From: an uncultured Candidatus Saccharibacteria bacterium | GTDB taxonomy: Bacteria; Patescibacteriota; Minisyncoccia; UBA6257; 2-01-FULL-56-20 | Length of the DNA: 64,000 nucleotides | Direction: 5' to 3' | NCBI GenBank assembly: GCA_965231155.1 | Contig: OZ246418.1 | Location: forward strand, 238,850-302,849 | Shown here: piece by piece, positions 649-59,407 of the stretch | Layout: every line of letters starts with the position of its first letter | How positions within the stretch are numbered: position 1 is the stretch's first letter | Notes under the pieces: generated by a model | Told to the model about the DNA's origin: nothing | The model's input: the letters and a program-made list of their open reading frames with translations, nothing else | Database searches by the model: none | Program-made: the position numbers and the translations under genes

Positions 649-1353
649 CTAACGCGAGGGGAGTCGTCGCACACCAACAGCTTGCACGGTGCCACTACTC
701 TCCGGACCAAAGATGATGACTGCATCCTTAGCCATAAACACTCGCCCTGAGGGCATCCGCGTACTGGAGGTGATAAACACTGTCGATGTTTCTCCTCTTC
801 TTGTTGTTATCAAGAAACCACCAGGGAGGACTTCTTCAATTACTCCTTTGCGCACCTCTTGCATACGAGGCGCTCCGAAATCACGATAAAAACGACCAAC
901 ACCACGGATATGATGCTCCTGTGCGAAATTACGAAATTGATTGTGGAAGTCTGCTCGAGAAATGAGGAAGCCTCCAGCGATAGCGAATGCCACAATACTA
1001 AGTATGGAATAGAGCAGGGGTCGTCGATAGGCGAATGAGTACTTCCTCACCATCACTTCCAAAATAAACATGAATACAAGCACGAAAAGAATGAGTAACC
1101 AGGGCAACGAGCGGAAAAAAAGAATCCAACCACCGAGCCCATAGACTGGCGCAAACCACACTCCCGCCTCGAAGACTTCAAAGATTACAAAGCTGGCGAG
1201 ATAAAGAACGGCGAGGAAAAGAACGCCAACGCCAGTTGCCAAAAGCGCTGCCTGCAAAACAAAATATTTCTTAGAGTGCATGGCGATCCGGCGTTCCTTG
1301 ATTGCTTTTAAGACCTCCTCCTCTACTGTTTTTTTCTTTTCCTCCTCAGACAT
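649..1353 (-). CDS. Membrane protein, putative anti-sigma factor
   Basis: Charged N-terminus followed by several TM helices; start 14 nt downstream of ECF sigma stop; position typical of anti-sigma. Confidence 0.45.
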   Translation of the reverse strand: MSEEEKKKTVEEEVLKAIKERRIAMHSKKYFVLQAALLATGVGVLFLAVLYLASFVIFEVFEAGVWFAPVYGLGGWILFFRSLPWLLILFVLVFMFILEVMVRKYSFAYRRPLLYSILSIVAFAIAGGFLISRADFHNQFRNFAQEHHIRGVGRFYRDFGAPRMQEVRKGVIEEVLPGGFLITTRRGETSTVFITSSTRMPSGRVFMAKDAVIIFGPESSGTVQAVGVRRLPSR

Positions 1354-1366
1354 GTTTTTTAAATAA

Positions 1367-1930
1367 TTATACTGGCTCGACTATTTTCTGGAGTAACAAC
1401 CGCCCTCGACGAAGACGTGAACTGACGGTTGGCACAGGAAGATGAAGAATCTCGGAAATTTCGTTATAGTTTTTATCTTCGTAATAGTAGAGCACCAGCG
1501 GTTCTCGATAGATTGCACCAATTTTATCGAGCGCTTTATCCAACATCCGCCTTACCTCTTCACGTTTCGCTTCGCCATCGGCAGTGTCAGGAGCCACTGG
1601 CTGAGGAAACAAGACATCGAGATCGAAGAAGAAAAGTGGTCCTCGCTCTCTTTTTTTAATGGCGTTGATGAACTCATTATGAGCAATGCGATATATCCAG
1701 GGAGAAAAACGTTGAGAGAGATCGAAACTCTGGATATTCACGTATGACTTTATAAAAACTTCCTGCACGATATCTTTCACCTCTTCGCCACGAAGCAGAA
1801 ACTTCCGCGCGTAACGAGTAATCTTCTCTTCATATCGCGCCACTAATACACCAAACGCTTCGGTGTCTCCACCTTGCACACGTTTAGCAATCTCTTCATC
1901 TGATTCGAGCTCTAGAGAGGAAGAAGCCAT
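1367..1930 (-). CDS. RNA polymerase ECF-type sigma-70 factor
   Basis: Sigma-70 region 2 ('FSPWIYRIAHNEFINAIKKR') and region 4 HTH ('NYNEISEILHLPVPTVSSRLRRGR'). Confidence 0.8.
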   Translation of the reverse strand: MASSSLELESDEEIAKRVQGGDTEAFGVLVARYEEKITRYARKFLLRGEEVKDIVQEVFIKSYVNIQSFDLSQRFSPWIYRIAHNEFINAIKKRERGPLFFFDLDVLFPQPVAPDTADGEAKREEVRRMLDKALDKIGAIYREPLVLYYYEDKNYNEISEILHLPVPTVSSRLRRGRLLLQKIVEPV

Positions 1931-2196
1931 ATAGAGGAAGCTTGCCTATCTTACTACAAAAAAGCAAACCTAATGTTGCTCACTAAGAGAAAAACCCTCT
2001 CTTCAGAGTAGTTTTTGCAACACTAAAGAGGGGGTACGAGAGCTGGGGGTCCGAAGACGCACCCAGCCCTCGCACGAGGATCGCGAGGAGCTCGCCCTAG
2101 GGGGTTAGCTCGACTCGCAGGAGGAATGGAAGATAGCGGGCCGCGCAGCTGAGGAGCTACGCGGATGATACTGCTGCTGAAGATCGAGCAACTTCG

Positions 2197-2649
2197 TCAG
2201 GCTCGCAACGCCTGCGCCTTGAAGATGGTCGAGGCGAAGACGCCGGTATCGCTCGTCTGCTGACCGCCATGTGCCGTCGTCGGAGTTCCGCCCGTCAGGT
2301 GCGCAACCGCGCCAGCCAAGAAGGGGTTCATCGCCACGCTCGGATCGCTCTTCGTCAGACCGCCGCTTTGGGTTTTCGCCACCGATCCGGTGTCGAAGTC
2401 ACTGCGGTCAGTCGCCGCCGGAGAACCACTCACCATCTGGTCGCTCTTCGTCGCGACGTCGAACTGCACTGCCTGGGCTTTGTCCTTGGCATCGGCCACC
2501 AGATCGGGCGGGACGACGCCATGCTCCACCGAAACGCTCGGCGGCGCCTTGGTTGCCGCGGCAGCAGCGGGGTGAGAGGTAATGAGGCCGATGGCCCCAA
2601 CCAAAGCCAGAGTCGAAACTCCGGCCAACCACTGTGAGATACGTCGCAT
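2197..2649 (-). CDS. Hypothetical secreted Ala/Thr/Gly-rich protein inside a GC-rich island (start taken at MRRISQ, inside the longer track ORF 2197..2769)
   Basis: Signal-peptide-like 'MRRISQWLAGVSTLALVGAIGLITSHPAAAA'; local GC about 60% versus about 43% in flanks. Confidence 0.35.
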   Translation of the reverse strand: MRRISQWLAGVSTLALVGAIGLITSHPAAAAATKAPPSVSVEHGVVPPDLVADAKDKAQAVQFDVATKSDQMVSGSPAATDRSDFDTGSVAKTQSGGLTKSDPSVAMNPFLAGAVAHLTGGTPTTAHGGQQTSDTGVFASTIFKAQALRA

Positions 2650-2997
2650 GAGCGACCTCCTTTTGCGAGACAATCTAGTGTCCCGCGGGCTAGGGATGGG
2701 TTGCGCGGAGATTAAGGCCCTCCGCATGGCCCCTCGGCTCCAACAACCTCTTCTTCCACAATGGACCACAGATCCACCACACCACCACGGTCCTCAGCAG
2801 CCACAACAGCCACTCATCTTGCAATCACCAGGACTGCAACCGTTTCCTTTCCATTCCAGTGAGGCGAGGATTTTGGCTCCGTAAGCAGAGCGGGGACAAA
2901 ACTCTCGCCTCACATATTCATTTAAAGTTCTGAGAATAATTCTACCCCTCAGGATAATTTTTGCAATATCTAAGCCCAGGAATGTGGATAACCAGTC

Positions 2998-4086
2998 CTA
3001 GAGAGTAATTAAGCTTTTTCGAGCCTTCGTCAGTTCCTTCAGCTTCCCTTTTTCTATAGCATAAAGGTCTTCGATCCGCACTCCGCCAAACCCTGGAATA
3101 TAAATCCCCGGCTCAATCGAAAAAACCATCCCCTCCTGAAGGAGGTTATTGGTCCGCGGAGAAAGATGAGGTAGTTCATGCACCTGGAGTCCAATGCCAT
3201 GACCAAGGGAATGCGAAAAATCCGGGAAGCCCTGTTTTCTAATATACTCACGAGCCACTAGGTCAACTTCGGACGCCTTCACCCTGCTTGTTATATGTTT
3301 CTTTATATACTCCCCAGCTTCCTTCTGTGCTCCAAGGACCGCCTGATGCATTTTCTTCTGTTTCTCTGAAGGCGTTCCATAAAAAATAGTTCGCGTCATA
3401 TCCGAGCAGTACCCATTTATCTTCGTACCAAAATCGAGAAGAATAAACTCGCCCTTAGATCCCTTGAGTTTTGTCTGACCAGTGTGATGATGCGGTACTG
3501 AGGAGTTTTTTCCGAAGGCCACAATTGTTTCAAATGAGAGTTTTCCTCCCTTACTTTTTATAAATTTCTCCATCTCCCAGGCCACCTCCACTTCTTTTAT
3601 TCCTGGTGTAATAATCTTCAGAATATGCTCAAACGTCTGATCGCCAAGCCAACAGGCCTTCTCAATATTCCTTATCTCCCAGCTTTCTTTAATCACCCGG
3701 AGAGATTCGATATCAACTCCTTTTACTTTAGAAATCGCGCGAGTAAACAACTTATGTTCTGAGACCTTGAGGTCGCTTTCCTCGATTCCCACCGTGCGAA
3801 TCTTCTGCTCTTTCGTAATGCCCTTCAGTAACTCCAAAAAAGAAACTCCGCGTCCTAATTCAACCAGTTCAAAATCCTTCACCTGTTTTTTAACCGCCTC
3901 GCTATATCGTCCATCGGTAAAGATATAGTTTTTCTTTTTAGTAATGAGCAGATAGGCTTCCCGCTCCTCAGTAGAAAAGTTGGAGTAGTCCGTCAGATAA
4001 CTGATGTGGGCTACCGAAGAAATCAGCACTGCATCAACCTTATTCTTTTTCAGTACCTGTCGAATAACAATAATGTGTTTACTCAT
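2998..4086 (-). CDS. pepP: Xaa-Pro aminopeptidase (M24 family)
   Basis: M24 metal-binding motifs 'DFGTKINGYCSDMTRT', 'HSLGHGIGLQVHE', 'EPGIY'. Confidence 0.8.
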   Translation of the reverse strand: MSKHIIVIRQVLKKNKVDAVLISSVAHISYLTDYSNFSTEEREAYLLITKKKNYIFTDGRYSEAVKKQVKDFELVELGRGVSFLELLKGITKEQKIRTVGIEESDLKVSEHKLFTRAISKVKGVDIESLRVIKESWEIRNIEKACWLGDQTFEHILKIITPGIKEVEVAWEMEKFIKSKGGKLSFETIVAFGKNSSVPHHHTGQTKLKGSKGEFILLDFGTKINGYCSDMTRTIFYGTPSEKQKKMHQAVLGAQKEAGEYIKKHITSRVKASEVDLVAREYIRKQGFPDFSHSLGHGIGLQVHELPHLSPRTNNLLQEGMVFSIEPGIYIPGFGGVRIEDLYAIEKGKLKELTKARKSLITL

Positions 4087-4163
4087 TTTTCCATTATAAC
4101 TTCTTACGAAATATCCTGCTTATACGAACACCTTTGAATATTTTTGAGTTCCTGCGAGTTGGT

Positions 4164-4199
4164 AAGTAAAAAAATGCCTCAGCTATAAAGCGCTGAGGC
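4164..4199 (-). terminator. Rho-independent terminator overlapping the 3' end of 4179..4718
   Basis: Perfect 8-bp stem gcctcagc/gctgaggc followed by a T-run on the minus strand. Confidence 0.6.
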
Positions 4200-4718
4200 T
4201 GGGTCACGATTTGTTCTTCGGAGTAATCCTGGACGCCTCTCCCTTTCGGCCGAGCTACTCCACTCCTTCACCCCACGACGGAGATACTCGGGACTGATTT
4301 CGAGCATCTCGCAGATATTTTCAAAGGAGAAGGGCCAGCGACGATCATTGTCCATGATCCACTGTTCAGCATCTCTGAAGAGATCCTTCCCGCGAAATCC
4401 TCTCGCCCCCCAATACTTCTGATAACAATCGAGGGCATCCTGCAGTACTGCGAGCATGAGCCTCTTCTCTCCGCGGACATTACTTCCCCCGCGAAAAGCA
4501 ACGTAGAACTGAGCCGGCAGTATTGTATCCGGCTCAAATAAAATACTACTCTGAACCCCTGCATTGAATGCCATCTGCACTCCTCCTTGATGACCTGGCG
4601 CCATCATACTGAATACTTTTCCCTGAAACAAGCCCCTCACTTCTTCGTGTTTATTATCAAAAAAATCGCCAGACTCAGATGAGGTGGCGAAAGAATCTCC
4701 TATTCGATGGTTCGGCAA
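4179..4718 (-). CDS. Hypothetical protein
   Basis: 179-aa ORF with its own terminator; no recognisable domain. Confidence 0.4.
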   Translation of the reverse strand: MPNHRIGDSFATSSESGDFFDNKHEEVRGLFQGKVFSMMAPGHQGGVQMAFNAGVQSSILFEPDTILPAQFYVAFRGGSNVRGEKRLMLAVLQDALDCYQKYWGARGFRGKDLFRDAEQWIMDNDRRWPFSFENICEMLEISPEYLRRGVKEWSSSAERERRPGLLRRTNRDPASALYS

Positions 4719-4894
4719 GAAAAGCGAAGTAGGAGAAGGAGGGCGATAAAAGAAACTGCAATGACTCCTACTCCCGCCAGGATCCCCCAGACGAAAACGA
4801 TCCCGCTAAGGAGGGCTACCGAAACGAGGAAAACAAGCGGTAGGGATATTTCCGGTGAAAAGGCTCCCTCTTCCTCTTCTTTATATTCAGTCAT
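4700..4894 (-). CDS. Small membrane protein (hypothetical)
   Basis: 64 aa, acidic N-terminus plus two hydrophobic helices; lies between the Cys-rich gene and 4179..4718. Confidence 0.3.
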   Translation of the reverse strand: MTEYKEEEEGAFSPEISLPLVFLVSVALLSGIVFVWGILAGVGVIAVSFIALLLLLRFSCRTIE

Positions 4895-4995
4895 GCGCGC
4901 TCCTCTCTATGGCTAAGAATACCTCTCTCAACAAAGATGTAAAGATCTTTTGTGTTATTGCAATTTATTCTCCCCGCTCCACGAAAAAAACAAGC

Positions 4996-6699
4996 CTATA
5001 CCACCTCGGCCTGATAACACTGCTCACAGTAAACAATCTCCGGACGGTCTGGTGCGTAGGAGGTTTCTATTTCTTTGGCACACTTACTGCAGGTGCGGTG
5101 ATATAGGCGGGGTAGATTTGTCCGGACAAGACGTGCTTTTTGGCGACAACCCTGGCACCTGGTCGGCAGTGGAAGTGTAAATCTCCTCATTAAACTTATC
5201 TCTCCGGGCACAACTCGAAAGGCTTTACCGCACTCTTCGCACCCAATCGTCTCGTTCAATACTGAGTCATTAGTCTTTTCTATCCTGTCTGGAAGATGAG
5301 ATCCTTTAATAGTAATCGAGGGCTGATTTGTCTCTCCCTCATACCAACCAAACCCCTCCCGAGCTGCCTCTTCTTTCGTCTTTGGGAAAAATAACTGGGC
5401 GAGCGTTTCGTTGTAGGCAAATGAAGAAAGACTGCAAGGTAAAAACTCGCCATAAGACCAGATTCTTCCCTGAGAATCAATATAAGGGTTCTTTTTCATA
5501 TCCTCCTCGATCTGTGCCACTAACTTCTCATACACTTCTTTCGGATACTGCTTGTTCAAAATACAGTAGTCTTTACGCTTAAGATTAATACACCCAAATA
5601 CATGCTTCGCAGAAATAGCATAGACTGAGTATTGGTTATCCAGCGCGTCAGGCCAACACTCAAAAGAAAACTTCACATCGCTCGCCCCTTCGCCAATAAC
5701 CGCTCCTTCATATATTCTTTCTGCACCATTCCCCCAACCGGAGTAATCGTAGACATCACGTGCGGCTGGGAAACTCACAAACTGCACAAAACGACCATCC
5801 TCAACACTCGTTATCATGTAGGCATCCTTCACATTCTTCGATTCGTAGACATAATCACCAGTTACGCCCACATTCAGACTATTCCCAACATATACTCTTC
5901 GTGGATGTTTATTCCAAAACTCATAGGCTTTTTTCTGCATGGCTTCCAGAGAAGCACGAGACTGGAGATTCATCTCCTCAAGCTTTTTAAAATACCCTTC
6001 TTTTGTGTATTGCTCATTCCAGATACAGTAGCTCTTACTCCGCAAGTTCACGCATCCAAAACAGTTCGTACAGCCTGTGCAGCTTCGAGAGAACCACAGA
6101 TCGCTACAAGAGTCACACTCCTCAGAGAAAAATGTCTGATAGCACTTACTGCATCCCACATCCTCATAACACAGCTCACTCTCTTTCATTCGATAGCAAT
6201 CGAGTGAGTCTTTAAGTGCATTCAAAAAAGTAGAATAGTAGGCATTTTCACAATAGTCGGCCCAAAAAATAAGATAACTATCTTTGCAGTGACCAAGCGC
6301 GTTTGAGTAATCACAGTTTTTGTTTGTGAGGTAGGCAGCTTCAAGAGCTTGCCAAGGAGTTTTCTCGGCGAGCTCCTTTAGCTGAAGCAAAAACGGTCGA
6401 GAGGGATCATAGTCCATTCCGTACTCAAGACCATCCCAATCATCTGACCACCAACAGGGCATACAGTAGACAGTCTTCTTCTTATCTGGGGAGTAGATAG
6501 TGAGCATGCTCTTTTCACACTTGGCACAGTTACGCTTATAAAGACTCCAGATGTTCGTAAAGGCGAAGCGCCGCATCATTCGACACTCCGGACACCAGGT
6601 CGGCGGAGGAACTGACATTTTTTTATAGAAATCAAAATCCTGGGGTTCGACGGTAAAACTCGCTTTGCAGTTTTGACAACCCTTGGTCTCTGAATTCAT
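4996..6699 (-). CDS. Cysteine-rich multi-zinc-ribbon protein, paralog A (unknown family)
   Basis: 567 aa with >40 Cys. N-terminal CxxC...CPxC ribbon, internally repeated 'FGC(V/I)NL+xKxYCIxNxQYxKExY' units, C-terminal 'RCQGCR...CSKC...CEQC' ribbons. N- and C-termini shared with 6710..8467. Confidence 0.6.
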   Translation of the reverse strand: MNSETKGCQNCKASFTVEPQDFDFYKKMSVPPPTWCPECRMMRRFAFTNIWSLYKRNCAKCEKSMLTIYSPDKKKTVYCMPCWWSDDWDGLEYGMDYDPSRPFLLQLKELAEKTPWQALEAAYLTNKNCDYSNALGHCKDSYLIFWADYCENAYYSTFLNALKDSLDCYRMKESELCYEDVGCSKCYQTFFSEECDSCSDLWFSRSCTGCTNCFGCVNLRSKSYCIWNEQYTKEGYFKKLEEMNLQSRASLEAMQKKAYEFWNKHPRRVYVGNSLNVGVTGDYVYESKNVKDAYMITSVEDGRFVQFVSFPAARDVYDYSGWGNGAERIYEGAVIGEGASDVKFSFECWPDALDNQYSVYAISAKHVFGCINLKRKDYCILNKQYPKEVYEKLVAQIEEDMKKNPYIDSQGRIWSYGEFLPCSLSSFAYNETLAQLFFPKTKEEAAREGFGWYEGETNQPSITIKGSHLPDRIEKTNDSVLNETIGCEECGKAFRVVPGEISLMRRFTLPLPTRCQGCRQKARLVRTNLPRLYHRTCSKCAKEIETSYAPDRPEIVYCEQCYQAEVV

Positions 6700-6709
6700 A
6701 TTCCGCTTA

Positions 6710-8467
6710 TTATACTACTTCCGCTTGGTAGCATGACTCACAGTAAACAATCTCCGGGCGGTCTGGTGCGTAGGAGGTTTCAAAATGTTCGGAGCAAGGA
6801 GTAGCTCCGTGGACGTGAGAGGCATTGTTTTTATAACCATTTTTTCTTGCTTCTTCACCACCACACTCACACTGACGCTCAAAGTAGCGAGGCGGATTAA
6901 CCAATGACGCCCGACGAGCAGCACGACACGGCACGCAGGTTCTTGGTAACGGCAGATTCATCTGTCGTAAAAACTGTAATTCAGAAGCAATGATCCTATA
7001 GGCTCGCTTGCATGAACTGCACTGAATCAATTCCTTTAAAATCTCCTCGCTTACCTCCGCAATGGTCGCTGGCAAACTATCAGCCGTACGTGTTGTCTCG
7101 TACTCTCGGACATCTGGATCTCGCCAAAAAACATTCTTTGCCGTAGCTTCTTCTTTAGTTAAAGGGAAGATTTCTTGGCGGGCGGTTTCATTATAGGCAA
7201 ACGGAGAAAACTCATCAGGACAAAATTCGCCATACTTATATATATTTCCCTTTGCATCCTTATAAGGCAATGCATTCATCTGCTCGATAATCTTCGGCAC
7301 TAAACGTTCGTACTCTTCTTTCGTGTACTGTTTATTCAAGATACAGTACTGCTTTTTCTTCAGAGAAACGCACCCAAAACAATCGGAAGATGAGCGACAG
7401 AAGAATGCGTACTCCATCGCCCGACATGAGGGCCAGGACTCAAAGCAAAACTTTTCCTGATTACATTGATCACCACAGGTCAGACACTCATACATCTGCG
7501 TGGCATTATTCCCCCAAGGACCATAGTCGTAACAGTCTTTTGTGCCAAGGTAAATATTATAAAGATACTTACTGTCCTGGGCGTCGTCTACAAAATAACT
7601 CGACTTCACATTCTTTACATTGTGTAGGTAATCCCCACTCGAATCAATAATCCGAAATCCCCGATAATATTTATTTGGAAAGGCCAGAGAAAACTCCCGA
7701 GTCTTTTTGAGCGCTGTCTGAAGACCACTCCAGGAATCTAGTTTCAGTTCGGCTATCTTTTTTTCATACTCCTCTTTACTGTACTGCTCATTAAAGAAGC
7801 AAAATGACTTCCCTCGTTGATTTACGCACCCGAAACAGTTCGTGCAGTTGGTACAGTTTTTAGAAAACCAGACATCAACACAGGCTTCGCAGTCCTCGGA
7901 AAATACTGTGCGATAGGAGTTATTCACCGACACGCACTCATACGAAGACTGGTTATCATTAGAAAGGGCGCAGTCAAAACAGGCGGTACACGCCGTACAC
8001 TGAGTTGTATAGGCCGAATCTTCCATGCGGTCACCATTAAAACAGAGATAGCAATTTTTAAAATAACCAGCCTGGTCACAGTAGTCAGAATTAACCATCC
8101 CCTGCACACTCTTCGATGGCCAGGGTACGGAGTAGAGCAGCTCTCTGAACTGTTCAAAGAAAGGACGAGAGAAATCATACTCGCGACCGTACTGGAGCGG
8201 GTCCCAGGCGTCTGATTTCCAGTACTCGTGATCGTAGACCGTGCTTTGAATGTTCGGTGGAAAGCCAGAAAATATCTCTTTCCCAGAAGCATCATCTTTC
8301 CGTCGAAAAAGTAGCCGGCCGTTCCGCCAGGCCAGACGCCGTTTTAACCGACACTCTGGACAGAAGGTCGGTGGAGGCACAGCCATCTTTTCATAGAATC
8401 CAAAATCTTGCGGTTCAATACTGAAATTCGCTTTGCAGTTTTGGCAGGTGCGGTTTTCTGATTCCAT
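6710..8467 (-). CDS. Cysteine-rich multi-zinc-ribbon protein, paralog B
   Basis: 585 aa, same architecture and motif order as 4996..6699; identical C-terminal 'ETSYAPDRPEIVYCE(Q/S)CYQAEVV'. Confidence 0.6.
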   Translation of the reverse strand: MESENRTCQNCKANFSIEPQDFGFYEKMAVPPPTFCPECRLKRRLAWRNGRLLFRRKDDASGKEIFSGFPPNIQSTVYDHEYWKSDAWDPLQYGREYDFSRPFFEQFRELLYSVPWPSKSVQGMVNSDYCDQAGYFKNCYLCFNGDRMEDSAYTTQCTACTACFDCALSNDNQSSYECVSVNNSYRTVFSEDCEACVDVWFSKNCTNCTNCFGCVNQRGKSFCFFNEQYSKEEYEKKIAELKLDSWSGLQTALKKTREFSLAFPNKYYRGFRIIDSSGDYLHNVKNVKSSYFVDDAQDSKYLYNIYLGTKDCYDYGPWGNNATQMYECLTCGDQCNQEKFCFESWPSCRAMEYAFFCRSSSDCFGCVSLKKKQYCILNKQYTKEEYERLVPKIIEQMNALPYKDAKGNIYKYGEFCPDEFSPFAYNETARQEIFPLTKEEATAKNVFWRDPDVREYETTRTADSLPATIAEVSEEILKELIQCSSCKRAYRIIASELQFLRQMNLPLPRTCVPCRAARRASLVNPPRYFERQCECGGEEARKNGYKNNASHVHGATPCSEHFETSYAPDRPEIVYCESCYQAEVV

Positions 8468-20676: not shown

Positions 20677-20759
20677 ACACTCCTCCCTGTATCGTTAGAC
20701 TACTTACAGTATAAACAGCTTCTTCTTTTTTAACTAACTTAAATAGAAACCTCATTAGA

Positions 20760-20800
20760 AAAGGGGCTTTTGCTTTTCCACAACGGGTTTAAGAAAAAAT
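20760..20800 (-). repeat. Partial copy of the repeated terminator module (core TTTTCCACAACGGGT)
   Basis: gcttttccacaacgggtt just downstream of the gpmA stop. Confidence 0.4.
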
Positions 20801-21450: not shown

Positions 21451-22728
21451 TTACAACAAAAACCGCGAGAAGACCCCTTTCTCGCCAAGCGCTTCTTCGA
21501 TACGAAGCAACTCATTATATTTCGCCGTGCGATCACTGCGACTGACTGATCCAGTTTTTATCTGACCAACACCTAAGCCCACTGCCAAATGGGCAATCGT
21601 CGCATCCTCCGTCTCTCCCGAACGATGCGATAATACCGCCCGCCAGCCAGCCTGATGTGCCATCTCCACCGCCGCAATTGTTTCTGTTAATGTGCCAATC
21701 TGATTTACTTTAATCAAAATTGCATTGGCTGATTTTTCTCGAATACCACGCTCTAAAAATTTTGTATTCGTCACAAAAAGATCATCGCCAACAAGCTGAA
21801 TCTTCTTTCCCAATCGTTCAGTCATTTTCTTCCAACCATCCCAATCGTCTTCGGCCAAGCCATCTTCAATCGAAATAATTGGATACTGATCAATGAGCGA
21901 TGTATACCAATCAATCATCTCCTCCGAAGAAAACACTTTGTTTTCTCGATTAAGATGATATGCCCCGTCTTTGTAAAGCTCCGACGAAGCAACGTCGAGC
22001 GCCAGCGCAATATCCTTGCCCAACGTGTATCCTGCAATCTCTACAGCTTCGGCAATGAGATCTAACGCTTCTTGATTTCCTTGTTTCACATGTGGCGCAT
22101 ATCCTCCTTCGTCACCAACGGTCGTTCCATATCCTTTTTTCGTTAATACCTTTTTCAAAGCATGAAATACATTCACCATCGCCTCAAGCGCCTGATGCGA
22201 CTTCCCAAAACCAATCGGCACAATCATAAACTCCTGAATGTCTGTTGATCCTGCCGCATGTTTTCCGCCGTTAATAATATTGCAGAGTGGCATCGGCATA
22301 AGCGGTGGTCGTTTCTCCTCCATCAGATCCTCAATATACTGGAACAGCGCTCGGTTTTGCGATTTCGCAGTGGCGTGCGCATTCGCTAAAGAAACCGCTA
22401 AAATCGCATTCGCCCCTAATCGTTTTTTATTTTCTGTACCATCAGCCTTAATCATAAGGCGATCGATTCCGGCCTGATCTTCAGAATCCTTCCTGACTAA
22501 AAGATTATTAATTTCTTCCTTAATATTTTTGACTGCCTGCAACACACCCTTTCCTCCATACCGCGTTCCCCCATCACGCAACTCATGCGCCTCGTAGGTT
22601 CCCGTTGAGGCACCAGACGGCACCGCCGCCCGACCGATAGTTCCGTTTTCTAAAATAACATCCGCCTCCACCGTTGGATTTCCTCGTGAATCTAAAATCT
22701 CCCGAGCAATAATTTTTTGTATCTTCAT
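21451..22728 (-). CDS. eno: Enolase
   Basis: Full-length enolase signature including 'SHRSGETED' and 'IKVNQIGT'. Confidence 0.95.
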
Positions 22729-22849
22729 ATATAAAAAGAAAAATAAAAAAAGCGTCCGACACGCAATATGGAATTACTATAATGTTCGTTGTCTTAGAAA
22801 TCAACAACGCCCGTAGAATGAGATGGACTTCATCTATCTATCAAGTTAT

Positions 22850-22920
22850 TTCAGTCATTTCTGAGTAGGCGAGCAATAAAAAAACTCTCAATAATAGAGG
22901 GTCTTTTAATTTCCCACTCC
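22850..22920 (-). repeat. Repeated intergenic terminator module, copy A
   Basis: TCATTTCTGAGTAGGCGAGCAATAAAAAA-hairpin-TCTTTTAATTTCCCAC; overlaps the stop of 22906..23925. Confidence 0.6.
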
Positions 22921-23925
22921 CTCATTCGGTACCTCGTCTTTGGTTATCCTGAATGTGGATAGGATTGCTTGAAGATCGTAACTGCGTGTGGTCAACACAT
23001 ACATCGAAGCTTTACTCATCATGTATGCCGCCTTATAAGACCCTATCAGTGAATTTTCTTCATACACCGTATTCGGACGATCCCCAATTCCTTCCCTTAC
23101 AATTGATTCGGAGTTATCAAGGATCCCGTAGCGAGAGATATCTATGCCATCGAACTCCCTTACTACTTCCCCATTCTCCGTTACGCCTCGTCCGATACTC
23201 GGTTCCCTGGCTGGATCGTAGACCAGTAATCCAAAGTGAGTAGATCCTTCTAGCTTAAAAATGCCTTGCTTTTTTAGATCCACCACAAAGTTCGAGGGGT
23301 ATTTAAACTCAAATCCAAAATCATTATTTCTATAGGTTTTCCAAGTTGAAGTTTCGGGAGATAAATCAAGAGAGTAGTGCTTCTCCGGTATGCTTTTCAC
23401 TAGGAGATCAAAAACCTTAAGAATATCTGGGCGGATGCTTTGAGTTAATAAGTAATCTGTTCCAGGATCGGTGCCTAGGACCAAATCCCCTACAATCTCA
23501 CACCTTGTCTGCGGATTCTTTTTCCTAAAATATGCGCAGTTATTATTCATCCCTCCTCCATATACTACAATCTGATCTTCGTCATACTCACTCGCTTCTC
23601 TCTTTAGGATGTCTGGAGGGGTAAGAATGACTGCTTGTAATGGACTATCTTTTCCTGCAGTAAGACCACCCTCTATTAACATGAGTGGATGACGAATCTC
23701 TTTTACATTCCAACTACTCGGATACTGAAAAACGAAGTTCGTATACTCACTCTTGAACTTATCGAATGTTTTCCATCCTAATCTTGAACCCTCAATACCA
23801 CCCACCGCTACCGGCTCCTCTCCCCAACTATTCCAGACATTAATCCCAAGAAAGCATGCTACGGGGATGCCAATAACAATTATTAAGACGATGAGAATAC
23901 GCTTGATCGAAATCCCTTTATTCAT
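22906..23925 (-). CDS. Membrane-anchored hypothetical protein
   Basis: TM helix 'ILIVLIIVIGIPVACFLGI' then a ~300-aa extracytoplasmic domain; start taken at MNKGISIK because the track GTG start lies inside repeat copy B. Confidence 0.5.
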   Translation of the reverse strand: MNKGISIKRILIVLIIVIGIPVACFLGINVWNSWGEEPVAVGGIEGSRLGWKTFDKFKSEYTNFVFQYPSSWNVKEIRHPLMLIEGGLTAGKDSPLQAVILTPPDILKREASEYDEDQIVVYGGGMNNNCAYFRKKNPQTRCEIVGDLVLGTDPGTDYLLTQSIRPDILKVFDLLVKSIPEKHYSLDLSPETSTWKTYRNNDFGFEFKYPSNFVVDLKKQGIFKLEGSTHFGLLVYDPAREPSIGRGVTENGEVVREFDGIDISRYGILDNSESIVREGIGDRPNTVYEENSLIGSYKAAYMMSKASMYVLTTRSYDLQAILSTFRITKDEVPNEGVGN

Positions 23926-23940
23926 GAAGCTAAGTATACC

Positions 23941-23992
23941 AAAAGACCCTCTATTTATGAGGGTCTTTTGTTTTTCCACAACGGGTACCCAG
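23941..23992 (-). repeat. Repeated terminator module, copy B
   Basis: Perfect 8-bp hairpin agaccctc-tatttat-gagggtct + TCTTTTGTTTTTCCACAACGGGTA. Confidence 0.6.
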
Positions 23993-24068
23993 AAAAAATA
24001 AAAGAAACTTCGTTTCTCTTCGCTATCATCAAAATGAGTGGAACTAAAATTTCGCCAGTTCTCACTCT

Positions 24069-24512: not shown

Positions 24513-24597
24513 TTTTTTTATTATGCCACACCTCCCATAGAATTCAAGTTGGCGAAAATAGAAATGGTTCACAGAATATTAAAACAGCCCTCAAATT

Positions 24598-24682
24598 GGC
24601 CGTTTCGTTCATTTCTGAGTAGACGCGCAATAAAAGACCATCATTAATAGAGGGTCTTTTACTTTTCCACAACGGGTATTTG
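24598..24682 (-). repeat. Repeated terminator module, copy C
   Basis: CCGTTTCGTTCATTTCTGAGTAGACGCGCAATAAAAG-hairpin-TCTTTTACTTTTCCACAACGGGTATTTG. Confidence 0.65.
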
Positions 24683-24694
24683 CAAAGTAATTGG

Positions 24695-26926: not shown

Positions 26927-27283
26927 TTACTTGCTGGCCATGTAGAGAGGGACGCTATCGGCCAAATCTTGAGCGCTAATGCCCAGCTCCTCTGCAAGCT
27001 TCACGGCATTGATGAACATCTTTACCGTAGCTTCTTTGAGGATGGCGTTGTCCATGTGCTCGCTGCCAGCATGATCCCAGCGCTCACATTCGGCTGCCAG
27101 TTTTCCTATGGATTTGCACATATGGAAAACGCTATGACCGACGACGAATACCTTCTTCTGGCTAGGAGAGGCTACCCCTAGCGTTGGGTAGTGCTCCGGC
27201 GTGAAGGTATACCGTGCACCGATATATTCCATGATCTTAGTTAGATCAGTTGATTGAGACATCATTACCCCTTTCGCTGTCAT
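26927..27283 (-). CDS. DinB/YfiT-like (DinB_2 superfamily) protein
   Basis: His-rich four-helix pattern 'GHSVFHM...WDHAGSEHMDNAIL'; conserved promoter/leader module upstream; true start probably the internal MMSQS after the AAAGGGG Shine-Dalgarno. Confidence 0.5.
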   Translation of the reverse strand: MTAKGVMMSQSTDLTKIMEYIGARYTFTPEHYPTLGVASPSQKKVFVVGHSVFHMCKSIGKLAAECERWDHAGSEHMDNAILKEATVKMFINAVKLAEELGISAQDLADSVPLYMASK

Positions 27284-27412
27284 CCTTATACATCAACCAG
27301 AAGCTTGGTTCAACTCCGGTCATCTCTCAGACCATTTCGTTCATTTCTGATTAGGCACGGAATAAAAAACCCTCATAAATAGAGGGTCTTTCATTTTTCC
27401 ACAACTGATACT
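27284..27412 (-). repeat. Repeated terminator + promoter/leader module, copy D (extended form)
   Basis: About 90% identical to 28887-29015 over ~125 nt; contains the ccctc/gaggg hairpin + T-run, then TTGAAC-17-TATAAG and a Shine-Dalgarno. Confidence 0.7.
27285..27313 (-). promoter_or_regulatory. Sigma70-like promoter TTGAAC-17nt-TATAAG inside module D
   Basis: Identical -35/-10 hexamers and spacing conserved in module E. Confidence 0.5.
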
Positions 27413-27415
27413 TAG

Positions 27416-27440
27416 GTGGAGATGGACGGACGGTAGTGGA
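27416..27440 (-). repeat. Direct-repeat copy of the tmRNA 3' end (att-like remnant), copy 3
   Basis: GTGGAGATGGACGGA matches the ssrA 3' end 14/15; the following CGGTAGTGG is shared with copy 2. Confidence 0.55.
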
Positions 27441-27454
27441 AATAGATTCTGTTC

Positions 27455-28273
27455 CTATTCCTTAGGAAGCAGAAACTTGGTTTTGTCCGGTGACAGCAAT
27501 TCTAGCGAAGGGACAACAAATAGCTTGTCTTGCATCTTTGAGTAGTCGTAACTGGTGTTTGTAATCTCATCAATATCAAACGGCCTCCTCAAAACTTCAG
27601 AAGAGAAGGCGTGCTCTATTTCTCCCAATGATGACAGAAGTCCCGCTCCAAATGCTTTTATTCCTTCTTGCTCCTGAACTAAACCGAATTCAACCACAAA
27701 CCAATAGAGACGTTCGAGTTTTGTTATCTCCTCATCATTAGCTGTCCAGGCCAATTTCCCCAGACGTTCAGAAAAATCGGAAAACTCTTTATTCATAAAC
27801 ATTGGAACATGTCCGATTAGTTCGTGAATAATATCTGGCTCGGGAGTGTACTCGGGTTGTGAGCCGTGCCTAATGTACTGAGTACAAAGCATGGTTCGCT
27901 CTCCAAGATAGCTCAAAAAACTTCTGGCATCCACCAGACCTTCTACAGGAGCTAGTCGAAAATTTGCTTTTCGCTCTAACTCTTCCGAGATGTCTTTGAG
28001 CTGAGGAATTCTATCAGGTGATATACCAAGTTCTTTTTTCGCTTCTAAATACACTGATGACGCGTGAACTCTGTGTAGTTTCTCCAGCTTACTAACAACA
28101 AACTCCCAAACCTCGTTTTCTTCTTTGGTGTAAGAAACTGCTGGAATAGTTTTTGCCTTGGCATGTTGCTTGGATAACAAAGCAATCTCATTTCTCCGAG
28201 CTCGGTATTGTTTGTCATTTACCCCAGGATGATCCAGTGGAAGGATAGCTATGTTTTTGTGTTGTATATTCAT
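27455..28273 (-). CDS. phhA: Phenylalanine-4-hydroxylase (biopterin-dependent aromatic amino acid hydroxylase)
   Basis: 'CTQYIRHGSQPEYTPEPDIIHELIGHVPMF' iron-binding HExxGH region and overall PAH catalytic-domain colinearity. Confidence 0.8.
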   Translation of the reverse strand: MNIQHKNIAILPLDHPGVNDKQYRARRNEIALLSKQHAKAKTIPAVSYTKEENEVWEFVVSKLEKLHRVHASSVYLEAKKELGISPDRIPQLKDISEELERKANFRLAPVEGLVDARSFLSYLGERTMLCTQYIRHGSQPEYTPEPDIIHELIGHVPMFMNKEFSDFSERLGKLAWTANDEEITKLERLYWFVVEFGLVQEQEGIKAFGAGLLSSLGEIEHAFSSEVLRRPFDIDEITNTSYDYSKMQDKLFVVPSLELLSPDKTKFLLPKE

Positions 28274-28291
28274 AAATAAAAATTAGTAAAA

Positions 28292-28320
28292 AAACCGCCC
28301 CTGGATTAAAGAGGCGGTTG
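28292..28320 (-). terminator. Terminator
   Basis: ccgcctctttaatccaggggcgg hairpin plus T-run on the minus strand. Confidence 0.5.
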
Positions 28321-28476
28321 TATATTCGTAAGAAAGTGTTCGTTTAACAATACGAAGGAACCCCGCCGTAGGTGGTGTAGTAATAAGAAAAAATGAACAA
28401 TCTCATTGTCATTAGTTTTATCCTACATAATATAAAACACACAAGCAAGTCTTTGCTAGTCTATCGACTAACAGAG

Positions 28477-28500
28477 TGTGGAGATGGGCGGACGGTAGTA
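28477..28500 (-). repeat. Direct-repeat copy of the tmRNA 3' end (att-like), copy 2
   Basis: TGTGGAGATGGGCGGA is 16/16 identical to 29858-29873 at the ssrA 3' end. Confidence 0.6.
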
Positions 28501-28505
28501 GGAAT

Positions 28506-28535
28506 AAAAAAACCGCGCCTAGAAAGGGACGGCTA
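28506..28535 (-). terminator. Terminator after the zinc-ribbon gene
   Basis: ccgtccctttctaggcgcgg hairpin plus T-run on the minus strand. Confidence 0.5.
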
Positions 28536-28886
28536 TTTCTCTTCTACATCCTCCGGGAAAGGGAGACGTTGGCCATGAAGCCTCGCCAAATCGTTGAATG
28601 CTTTTCGATCCGCAGCGGTCATCGGACTGTTGAGTCTGTAGATCGGAGCAATCTGGTTGATTTGGTCTTCCGTCATGCCCGTGGTGTCCACCTGAGGCAG
28701 TGGCCGAACTGGTGGCTCCATCCCAGTTACCACATCAAGCCCACGACCACAAACACAAGTGAATCGACCATGATCATCTTCTGGGAACATCTCTGCTCCG
28801 CAACCAGGACACCTTGGGTTTCCATTCTGTCTGACATATCTATCAGTTTCATCCCAATACGACATGACAACCTCCCTCGCTGTCAT
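28533..28886 (-). CDS. Small zinc-ribbon protein (hypothetical)
   Basis: 'CPGCGAEMFPEDDHGRFTCVCG' ribbon; the conserved leader favours start at MTAREV or the internal MSYWDE after the AGGGAGG Shine-Dalgarno. Confidence 0.45.
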   Translation of the reverse strand: MTAREVVMSYWDETDRYVRQNGNPRCPGCGAEMFPEDDHGRFTCVCGRGLDVVTGMEPPVRPLPQVDTTGMTEDQINQIAPIYRLNSPMTAADRKAFNDLARLHGQRLPFPEDVEEK

Positions 28887-29015
28887 CCTTATACACCAAC
28901 TAGAAACTCGGTTCAACTCCGGTCATCTCTCAGGCCGTTTCCTTCATTTCTGGGTAGGCGCGCAATAAAAAACCCTCACTAACAGAGGGTCTTTTACTTT
29001 TCCACAACGGGTATT
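28887..29015 (-). repeat. Repeated terminator + promoter/leader module, copy E
   Basis: See copy D; hairpin ccctc-actaaca-gaggg, core TTTTCCACAACGGGTATTTG. Confidence 0.7.
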
Positions 29016-29022
29016 TGGGTGA

Positions 29023-29265
29023 TTAATGCTCCTCTCGCCACTTTCGGCGTAAATCCATTAGGGATAATTCCTGGCTATCTATTTCTTTTTGCTGAATAAA
29101 CACTGGGGACCAATCATCATGACTAATACGATTTCCCTCTCCATCATAGGTAGTACTCCCCATTCTTTTTGTTTCTAAGCCCATAGCCCCAAAGCCCTTA
29201 GCATTACTGTTCATAAAAAAAACTTCTCCTTGCTGAGTTTCAGGATGCACAAATTCTTTTTCCAT
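29023..29265 (-). CDS. Hypothetical small protein
   Basis: 80-aa ORF between the 29315 terminator and module E. Confidence 0.35.
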   Translation of the reverse strand: MEKEFVHPETQQGEVFFMNSNAKGFGAMGLETKRMGSTTYDGEGNRISHDDWSPVFIQQKEIDSQELSLMDLRRKWREEH

Positions 29266-29314
29266 TCTTGTATTATATCATCGGTTCGACCTCTGGATAT
29301 CTCTTAAATAAAAA

Positions 29315-29345
29315 GGCCCCTAGTAAAATACTAGAGGCCCTACCT
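29315..29345 (-). terminator. Terminator
   Basis: gggcctctagtattttactaggggcc hairpin plus T-run on the minus strand. Confidence 0.5.
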
Positions 29346-29358
29346 AATCCCAGCCAGT

Positions 29359-29682
29359 TTACGAAAGAACCTTCACACCGGCTTGAGAAAATGCCTTGAT
29401 CTCCTCGAGGACGATCCGGCGTATCGTCTCGTCGTGAATAGTAATGTCTATCCACGGCTGACAAAGTCGTCCGCAAACGCCAGTCGTAGTGAGGAGTGGT
29501 TGTTTGCGCCAGAACCGTTTCCTCCTGGAAACGTGATGAAAGGTACTCGACATCACGCCGATACCGTCATCATTGTTCGTTTGGTGAATCACAAGGGGCT
29601 CACCGAACAAAGCTTGACTCCGGCTGCAAATCCTCGCCAACACTCCAGCAGTCAACGCATCAAAATCTTCGTTTTTAGACAT
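29359..29682 (-). CDS. Hypothetical protein (first gene downstream of ssrA)
   Basis: Start MSKNEDFD with an AAGGAG Shine-Dalgarno and TTGACT-17-TATAAA promoter; terminator after the stop. Confidence 0.45.
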   Translation of the reverse strand: MSKNEDFDALTAGVLARICSRSQALFGEPLVIHQTNNDDGIGVMSSTFHHVSRRKRFWRKQPLLTTTGVCGRLCQPWIDITIHDETIRRIVLEEIKAFSQAGVKVLS

Positions 29683-29858
29683 CCACATCTCCTTACTGAC
29701 TGTTTTATACACTTTTTAAAACATTTAGTCAATATAGCCTCTCCTTTTTAGATTTTCACAACTTCCTCCCACACTAAGTACCCGTTTATCCATCACCCTT
29801 TCCCGTCATCCTCCGCCCTGCAATAAAAAATAACCCAACACGTGGGTTATTTTTTATT

Positions 29859-30191
29859 GTGGAGATGGGCGGAGTCGAACCGCCGTCTAAAGATGAAGGT
29901 CGCGGACCTTCTACGAGTGTAGTCTAGTGAACTAGGCAAATCGATCCATATTTTTTAGTCCCGGAAGCATGAATCAAACTTTTCGGGACGAGCTTCCTTA
30001 TATAAGACCAGGACTAACCTAAGAAGCCCAGGCTAGCTGATCCTCCACCGAGCTAGGCTCGGCTTAGCTTACGCAAAAGCGAAAGCTGGAGCTGCAACGC
30101 GTTGGTTGGCAGTATTGTTTTTTGCCGGTTTAATGAGTCAGCGCTCAACTCGCCAGTTCGGACATCATCTCTATCGAAGCCGGTCATCCCC
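29859..30191 (-). ncRNA. ssrA: tmRNA (SsrA), standard one-piece
   Basis: 5' GGGGAUGACCGGCUUCGA...; 3' tRNA-Ala-like end GGCGGUUCGACUCCGCC-CAUCUCC-A with a G3:U70 pair; tag frame GCC AAC CAA CGC GUU GCA GCU CCA GCU UUC GCU UUU GCG UAA (ANQRVAAPAFAFA*). Confidence 0.85.
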
Positions 30192-30215: not shown

Positions 30216-30244
30216 ATAATACATTAATTATGGAGATGAGTCAA
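30216..30244 (-). promoter_or_regulatory. ssrA promoter TTGACT-17-TATTAT
   Basis: Consensus-like hexamers about 25 nt upstream of the mature tmRNA 5' end. Confidence 0.5.
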
Positions 30245-59307: not shown

Positions 59308-59407
59308 GGGAATTTCTGTTTTATTTTTGGTTGTGTATATCTGAAACGCTCACGAAAGAGTCGGTTTTGCCCTATAATATAGAAGGTGGAATACGTTTCG
59401 CCCTCTT

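Follow-up and report, generated by a model that had tools for sequence, protein, structure and literature searches.

In a 64,000-nt stretch of contig OZ246418.1 from an uncultured Candidatus Saccharibacteria bacterium (positions 238,850 to 302,849, referred to as a whole as the window), the tmRNA gene, ssrA, is followed by two further copies of its own 3′ end, which delimit two small islets in tandem. These distal copies are probably junctions of attachment sites, produced when a site-specific recombinase acted on the ssrA 3′ end (TCCGCCCATCTCCAC). The initial annotation had taken the repeats for scars of successive integrations at ssrA, and this explanation proved the best supported: a sequence arm shared by the distal copies, the same arm and core on a groundwater contig, a break in synteny at ssrA and a graded series of related loci all agree with it.

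The tmRNA gene, on the minus strand at 30191→29857, matched Rfam RF00023 with 111.5 bits (E 9.8e-43), despite which an ARAGORN run on the window reported no tmRNA gene. It is full-length, with T-arm, acceptor and tag open reading frame (ORF) all intact and a tag frame reading ANQRVAAPAFAFA followed by a stop; a promoter-like TTGACT-17-TATTAT was found at 30244→30216 in a promoter scan, and the 3′ end encodes ..CTCCACAA, not CCA. The last 16 nt (29858–29873, minus strand; TCCGCCCATCTCCACA, or TGTGGAGATGGGCGGA on the plus strand) run from the final base of the T-loop through the 3′ half of the T-stem and the 3′ acceptor strand to the discriminator A and two nucleotides beyond it. A search with this 16-mer bore out the two copies described initially: an exact one at 28477–28492 and a third at 27415–27430 with two mismatches (14/16), or one mismatch in 15 over 27416–27430. 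The delimited segments, given before as about 1.37 and 1.05 kb, measure 1365 and 1046 nt; they are called islets A and B below, and the three repeats core copies 0 (ssrA itself), 1 and 2. All repeats are in direct orientation on the ssrA strand, with one fixed start inside the gene, at the T-loop/T-stem boundary.

Three matches to the 16-mer compare with an expectation of 0.02 in the window, and none of 100 shuffles attained three. The region was matched at 100% identity by the Logan assemblies SRR14271372 and SRR14271373, in three independently assembled contigs from two runs, and the contig breaks fall away from the repeats, at a generic module described below. Chance matching or an assembly artefact, in favour of which there is nothing beyond the short length of the core, is refuted by these results together with the arm-and-core search that follows.

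Both distal cores are adjoined on the minus strand by an arm of 11–13 nt, TTCC[A/T]CTACCG, without counterpart in ssrA (TTCCACTACCG when read together with the core). Upstream of the core, where ssrA has its T-arm, the sequence common to the two copies is TATT[C/T]C[T/C]ACTACCG (tmRNA strand). Copy 1, the junction between the islets (distal for A, proximal for B), consists of the exact core at 28477–28492 and an arm at 28493–28505 (ATTCCTACTACCG); copy 2, the distal junction of islet B, has its core at 27415–27430 (TCCGTCCATCTCCACC) and its arm at 27431–27443 (ATTTCCACTACCG). A 24-mer comprising arm and core (CCACTACCGTCCGYCCATCTCCAC) matched the window at the two distal copies only, with zero and one mismatch against 0.00 expected, and in a three-way alignment ssrA was wholly divergent upstream of TCCGCC. 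The tail said in the initial annotation to be common to the distal copies and absent from ssrA was thus confirmed in two ways. The ends of the cores differ in a further respect: ssrA and copy 1 end in CCACA, and copy 2 in CCACC, as do the ssrA genes of two relatives (L128 and L129, below), which is as predicted for an attR on the resident flank. No inverted-repeat partner of the arm and core was present among the 25 longest of 66 inverted-repeat pairs or in the sequence read directly.

The same features bear on a local, non-site-specific duplication of the ssrA 3′ end, by slippage, unequal crossing-over or gene conversion followed by divergence. All parts of the region are co-oriented, as such an origin would have it, and a 161-nt duplication (27258–27418 and 28861–29021) lies in the same region. 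However, the repeat ends sharply at 16 nt, where it is joined to an arm unlike ssrA, the segments between the copies are unrelated to one another, and an identical arm and core occur in another genome. We regard local duplication as highly improbable.

That second genome is represented by a contig from Hainich groundwater, L003, the one metagenomic match to a 22-mer of the putative att site (ACTACCGTCCGYCCATCTCCAC), which gave no match in viral contigs and none in species-representative genomes. On L003, 28 nt (TTTCCACTACCGTCCGTCCATCTCCACC) are identical to copy 2 at all 28 positions, including the terminal CC and the T variant TCCGTCC. The block comes after the stop codon of a gene for a CxxC protein, homologues of which are found 20 kb away in the window (4996–8467), and precedes unrelated DNA of differing G+C (42% vs 52%), which is higher in L003 beyond the block. 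If an attP arm is shared, one expects just such an identical arm and core in another genome, flanked by other neighbours to either side. The T variant common to copy 2 and L003 would likewise fit an origin in the arm of the element. A looser pattern, TAMCGKYCGYCCATCTCCAC, had eight matches in viral contigs, all of them the C-terminal coding end of one family of phage HNH endonucleases (..HVEMGDR and stop), and these were set aside as irrelevant.

The repeats might also have belonged to a generic repeated module of this genome, as the initial annotation had considered. The module, a hairpin (AAAAGACCCTC..GAGGGTCTTTT) with TTTTCCACAACGGGT, has six copies in the window, at 20743, 22836, 23907, 24590, 27322 and 28925. 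None of the six contains the core; copy 2 (27415) merely abuts a module and copy 1 adjoins none. Membership of the module is therefore ruled out and the derivation of the repeats from ssrA stands. The modules themselves (20743–20797, 22836–22917, 23907–23995, 24590–24686, 27258–27418 and 28861–29021) lie upstream of unrelated minus-strand genes, including that for enolase, and are made up of a bidirectional terminator hairpin flanked by GTTGTGGAAAAG, then TTATTGCGCGCCTACTCAGAAATGAA. The two 161-nt copies are 84% identical up to the start codon of the next ORF, and both contain TTGAAC-17-TATAAG, a promoter by eye that was not flagged in the promoter scan.

Syntenic relatives of the locus were reached through homologues of ClpB, the nearest of which are named Patescibacteria or Paceibacterota. 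Three of them, L128, L132 and L129 (76, 69 and 67% ClpB identity to the window, respectively), keep the order 245aa-UDG-127aa-ClpB-NUDIX-...-SHMT on one side of ssrA. On the other side there is no homology between the window and any of the three, and ssrA is thus the exact break-point of synteny. More distant ClpB relatives (L146 and L147, about 49% identity) have ssrA unlinked to ClpB.

In L128, the closest relative, ssrA has no extra core copy, and its downstream flank is not homologous to that of the window. The flank behind copy 2 does resemble the DNA trailing ssrA in L128 (z 5.9, with z about 2 for the other generic modules); the signal comes mostly from the terminator, and the similarity was dropped as evidence of an empty site. 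In L129, two mini-islands without integrase (1.26 and 0.52 kb) are bounded by partial cores at distances of 1.26 and 1.78 kb downstream from ssrA, and tblastn found remnants of a serine-recombinase C-terminus adjoining ssrA and the first core copy. The first mini-island of L129 opens with an array of palindromic units (5120–5420; GCCACGTTTGACGTGGC in a repeat of about 75 nt), broken by a gap of Ns.

The third relative, L132, carries an intact enzyme at this place. A 536-aa large serine recombinase (5649–7259) abuts ssrA on the opposite strand (Resolvase, 6e-24; Zn_ribbon_recom); its best PDB relative is the TP901-1 integrase, and its best NCBIfam profile is CcrB, at 2e-23, which is far below the equivalog cut-off. 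The last 30 or so codons run through the ssrA 3′ end, and the C-terminus (..VEMGGVEPPSKD..) is encoded by its antisense, so that integration alters the tail of the recombinase. The true far end of the island is a degenerate displaced 3′ end of 8 nt at 1063–1070 (cacgATCTCCAC; distal repeat ATCTCCAC). The island, of about 6.1 kb (1063–7259), also encodes Fic, a Terminase_2 small subunit and a LOOT RNA (RF03000, 83.6 bits), and from this content looks like a phage satellite. Since the arm following the first core copy of L129 (4158) is the same as that following ssrA in L132 (z 12), one family of elements has used the ssrA site in both genomes. A recombinase 47% identical to the L132 enzyme is also found at ssrA in L105, from Nomurabacteria. 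The relatives at this locus therefore show the full series expected: no extra copy in L128, decayed islands in L129 and an intact recombinase in L132. The route of decay is directly illustrated by L129.

Neither islet contains such an enzyme. Pfam searches gave no recombinase domain in any islet ORF, nor in the other ORFs of the window examined, a set that took in almost every one of about 180 aa or longer; tyrosine recombinases were likewise absent from the window ORFs examined. When the L132 recombinase was compared with the window by tblastn, the only match was the ssrA antisense itself, with no remnant. This agrees with the earlier argument that the segments are too small to encode an integrase, which had suggested decay or integration in trans: the islets are either decayed remnants or cis-mobilisable cargo units that use a recombinase encoded elsewhere.

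A simple model of the locus can be proposed. A recombinase would pair an attP carrying a copy of the last 16 or so nucleotides of ssrA with the chromosomal copy, and crossover would take place inside TCCGCCCATCTCCAC, so that the tmRNA gene stays intact and a partial copy remains at the far end of the insert. Each distal copy would then be an arm derived from the element, joined to part of the ssrA 3′ end. If recombination occurred again, at the same core or at the already displaced copy, a tandem array would result, here ssrA, terminator and trailer, three small ORFs, arm and core, the gene for phenylalanine-4-hydroxylase (PAH), arm and core, and resident flank. From the sequence we infer both the arrival of the two islets by integration and the order of events. 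The model predicts particular junctions, given here for the minus strand. Excised circles should contain TATTCCTACTACCG-TCCGCCCATCTCCACA-ATAAAAAATAACCC for islet A and TTTCCACTACCG-TCCG[T/C]CCATCTCCAC[A/C]-CTCTGTTAGTCG for islet B; chromosomes should read GGTTCGAC-TCCGCCCATCTCCACA-CTCTGTTAGTCG after loss of A, and GGTTCGAC-TCCGCCCATCTCCAC[A/C]-TAAGTATCAGTTGTGG after loss of both. Further sites for a trans-acting recombinase would carry TTCCACTACCGTCCGYCCATCTCCAC.

The DNA immediately behind ssrA complicates this picture. The terminator hairpin of ssrA (about 29822–29857) is followed by a conserved trailer (GGCGGAGGATGACGGGAAAGGGTGATGGATAAACGGG), the two together occupying 29741–29857 on the minus strand, as established by alignment, nhmmer and local alignment. 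About 80 nt of this (29741–29821) are homologous to trailers in L128 (7530–7612), where the trailer lies directly after ssrA, and in L132 (930–1030), where it comes after the displaced 3′ end. In local alignments the similarity reached z 22 between L128 and L132, and z 9.6 between the window and L132 (0 of 500 shuffles). L132 has a second exact core (888–902) 65 nt past the trailer, so that a unit of about 190 nt, comprising terminator, trailer and duplicate 3′ end, preceded its recombinase island.

Similar units of 150–320 nt, non-coding and ending in a second direct copy of the host ssrA 3′ end, follow ssrA in several metagenome-assembled genomes (MAGs): L007 (5678–5832), L024 (734–908), L040 (2551–2728), L049 (2834–3009), L079 (4938–5136), L105 (1336–1502), L057 (7273–7590), L032 (66–253), L009 (three tandem units) and L132 (888–1070). 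Their hosts are Taylorbacteria, Saccharibacteria, Nomurabacteria and Crocinitomicaceae (Bacteroidota) MAGs, and a Pseudomonadales MAG with the three in tandem. In these units a terminator is followed by the complement of the T-loop and T-stem (sometimes also of the acceptor strand), a hairpin and the duplicate core. The hairpin, GGTCGCG..CGTGACC around a variable inner stem, shows some compensatory changes. No Rfam family matched the units, and no similarity was found that would make them partial duplications of the tmRNA body. A group I intron in the tmRNA T-loop was considered and rejected, since the upstream copy is a whole gene with a terminator behind it. Behind the second copy there is a serine-recombinase gene in L105 and a weak remnant of one in L032 (27% identity, E 0.004).

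A motif in these trailers, CGGA[AG]T[CT]GAA, is the reverse complement of the T-loop and T-stem. Its distance from the preceding ssrA 3′ end or core copy is some 60–110 nt in L005, L024, L057, L079, L128 and the window (copy 2), and in L132 it comes after the displaced 3′ end; away from such sites there are roughly ten matches in the 2.07 Mb of loci searched. The motif also occurs in the window at 27303–27315 and 28906–28918, and the module on the resident flank (27258–27414) holds CCGGAGTTGAACC, an inverted T-arm-like motif. It may base-pair with the tmRNA 3′ end where transcription reads through, or else belong to an attachment site.

The layout of islet A parallels that of the short units, with three ORFs between the trailer and the arm and core. 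Given the homology of its trailer to the one native to ssrA in this lineage, islet A resembles an enlarged version of the "trailer + duplicate 3′ end" element of about 150–200 nt seen in several phyla. The trailer may be the proximal arm of an old, lineage-wide element; it is also possible that the trailer is native and copy 1 a secondary site. The proximal end of islet B lacks a terminator, which fits an insertion at copy 1 better than one at ssrA. On either reading the copies are recombination-site junctions, and only the order and age of the events change.

A different conclusion would follow if the repeats were an old, vertically inherited structure trailing ssrA, carried by many lineages and consisting of terminator, anti-T-arm trailer and duplicate 3′ end in 150–200 nt of non-coding DNA, with the genes of islet A inserted in some other way. 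The duplicate 3′ ends would then serve ssrA itself, for instance in the processing of its 3′ end or in termination, or be used as secondary attachment sites, and would not be scars left by two island integrations. The short units of the ten loci listed above, the recurrence of CGGA[AG]T[CT]GAA after ssrA 3′ ends and core copies in several lineages, the homology of the window trailer to those of L128 and L132, and the greater age of the L132 short unit relative to its recombinase island all speak for such a structure. However, it leaves copy 2, the arm common to copies 1 and 2, and L003 unexplained, and the closest relative, L128, has the trailer without a duplicate core. Copy 1 comes after a terminator-like hairpin and copy 2 before a terminator, an inconsistency that argues against a role at the transcript level. 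Moreover, the simplest account of the short units is that they too are minimal remnants bounded by att sites. Overall we consider this explanation unlikely.

Another proposal is that the extra 3′ ends are working secondary attachment sites on a conserved platform behind ssrA, built of terminator, inverted-T-arm trailer and duplicate 3′ end (150–200 nt in Patescibacteria, Bacteroidota and Gammaproteobacteria), into which trans-acting recombinases insert cargo of one to a few genes. The platform would then act as a dock for cassettes, much like an integron, and leave the essential tmRNA gene untouched. Insertion at a duplicate copy fits the recombinase gene and remnant found behind the second copy in L105 and L032. 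It also fits the missing proximal terminator of islet B. The proposal appears quite unlikely.

Several observations weigh against integration of both islets at the ssrA 3′ end. The DNA following the present ssrA matches the native trailer of the lineage, so that islet A does not start with evidently foreign DNA. Islet A also holds one of this genome's generic modules, which shares 84% identity with the module after copy 2, as well as a gene for a 110-aa protein with ordinary chromosomal homologues elsewhere, and is thus a mosaic and not a clean foreign block. The examined ORFs of the 64-kb window contain no recombinase domain or remnant, and no element bearing this att was present in the viral or species-representative genome collections. 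We saw no empty-site allele or alternative junction, and the exact proteins are carried by one genome only. Finally, the arms in the window are unlike those of L132, which makes a different enzyme, including a tyrosine integrase, possible; by analogy with the relatives, the recombinase would most likely be a large serine recombinase of the CcrB/DsiB type.

The whole array, read 5′ to 3′ on the minus strand, begins with ssrA, its terminator hairpin and the trailer of about 80 nt, followed by an orphan ORF of 107 aa from ATG, or 117 aa from an upstream GTG (29359–29682), behind which the terminator scan found a terminator at 29341–29313. Next come an 80-aa orphan ORF (29023–29265), the generic terminator, promoter and 5′ UTR module (28861–29021; repeat family D4) and a 110-aa, zinc-ribbon-like ORF (28533–28865). 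A hairpin and T-run at 28505–28534 lie between this ORF and copy 1, which follows directly; the stretch was read as terminator-like by eye, was not flagged by the terminator scan, and is a 67% member of repeat family D14. Islet B (27455–28476) consists of a leader of 200 nt and the PAH gene (27455–28273). Beyond copy 2 a generic module, the presumed resident flank (27258–27414), leads into a 111-aa ORF (26927–27262) and more orphan genes, up to the enolase gene at 21451–22728. All of these features are on the minus strand.

The two orphan ORFs of islet A had no Pfam match, and searches of all islet and flank ORFs with PHROGs, NCBIfam and PADLOC gave none; comparison of the islet proteins with viral contigs gave nothing credible. 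Look-ups of the 110-aa gene (four in all) located homologues in other Patescibacteria at seven loci, representing four distinct chromosomal contexts, in two of which the gene lies downstream of the L13-S9 ribosomal protein genes. Neither ssrA nor an att-like site was near the homologue at any of the seven loci.

The PAH of islet B (Biopterin_H, Pfam 5e-83) has its closest homologue, 68% identical, in L124; the next ones are 55–61% identical, and those that are named come from Acidobacteriota. From this pattern of homologues, PAH is plausibly horizontally acquired cargo. In L124 the gene lies in an unrelated context without an att-like site, together with about 120 nt of the leader, and the nucleotide identity is 68% over 900 nt. 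The leader (28274–28400, minus strand) ends in a strong terminator hairpin at 28319–28293, about 20 nt before the start codon, and contains an upstream alternative pairing partner, ACGGCGGGG; the 120 nt or so kept in L124 are at 2887–3008. It looks like an attenuator or a riboswitch-type leader. It had no match in Rfam at the gathering threshold.

Elsewhere in the window (4996–8467 and 57436–63810) there are two tandem paralogous genes for proteins of about 570 aa with a C-terminal treble-clef CxxC zinc finger, and three large adjacent ORFs (623, 818 and 668 aa) without Pfam match, two of which share repeats (D2, D13 and D15).

Patescibacteria have tiny, streamlined genomes, and their acquisition of accessory genes is poorly documented. 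In the window and the three relatives, small cargo has gathered behind repeated ssrA 3′ ends, and the DNA downstream of the gene is a hot spot for it; here the cargo is PAH, presumably acquired horizontally, and orphan genes, and relatives carry a CcrB-like serine recombinase in the same place. If the islets can still be mobilised in trans, they would be among the smallest att-bounded cargo units described; if they have decayed, they are an example of island erosion down to single genes in reduced genomes. The locus has the usual footprint of mobile DNA inserting at a tmRNA gene, and as such is real, fairly ordinary and an incremental finding. It adds an example from Patescibacteria, unusually small islets without integrase, and a pointer to a family of CcrB-like, ssrA-targeting recombinases, and nothing in it contradicts current understanding. 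The widespread short "trailer + duplicate 3′ end" unit is the more unusual lead, lying outside the islet finding.

Among known systems, integron cassette arrays resemble the islets in being tandem single-gene units, each closed by a short sequence like a recombination site, with no recombinase inside. However, there is no IntI, attI or Pc here, the head of the array is ssrA, and the 28-nt site is derived from ssrA and is not an imperfect palindrome of the attC type. Tycheposons share with the present locus a streamlined genome and variable islands beside tRNA or tmRNA genes, but they have tyrosine recombinases and measure several kb, and no tycheposon genes are present here. The islands of Prochlorococcus also contain degenerate elements and scattered partial tRNA repeats from older integrations (bioRxiv 10.1101/2020.12.28.424599).

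Genomic islands recognised by Islander and TIGER are by definition required to contain an integrase gene, usually that of a tyrosine integrase (Williams and co-workers; PMC4383910), and neither islet does. The likeness is in the insertion itself, with a target gene regenerated by the insert, a displaced 3′ fragment at the far end and tandem arrays through reuse of the site. Cis-mobilisable elements (CIMEs; cited, with accretion-mobilisation, in PMC3146451) are closer in content, being att-flanked cargo in tandem at an integration site, without recombination or transfer genes; here no helper element is visible in the 64-kb window and mobilisation in trans is putative.

The islands at ssrA in Dehalococcoides provide a further comparison. 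They have a 20-bp repeat with a 15-bp conserved motif upstream of it that is absent from ssrA, and a CcrB-like recombinase of about 540 aa is encoded next to attL on the reverse strand; they occur in tandem, and some without integration genes have been discussed as cis-mobilisable (PMC3146451). The islets of the window differ in having no integration module, remnant or adjoining DsiB/CcrB-like recombinase, in their size (about 1 kb with one to three genes, against roughly 12 kbp for vcr islands; PMC3146451) and in their host, which belongs to the Patescibacteria (Paceibacteria-like). In other respects the two are alike. In both, the ssrA 3′ end is repeated directly, over 20 bp there and 16 nt here, from a start in or beside the T-loop, and each repeat is immediately preceded by a short conserved motif that ssrA lacks, found here also in L003. 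Tandem islands downstream of ssrA, some lacking integration genes, are likewise common to both. The likeness extends to L132, in which a CcrB-like recombinase of about 540 aa lies beside attL on the opposite strand, as DsiB does, and the same type of enzyme is found in L105 and as remnants in L129.

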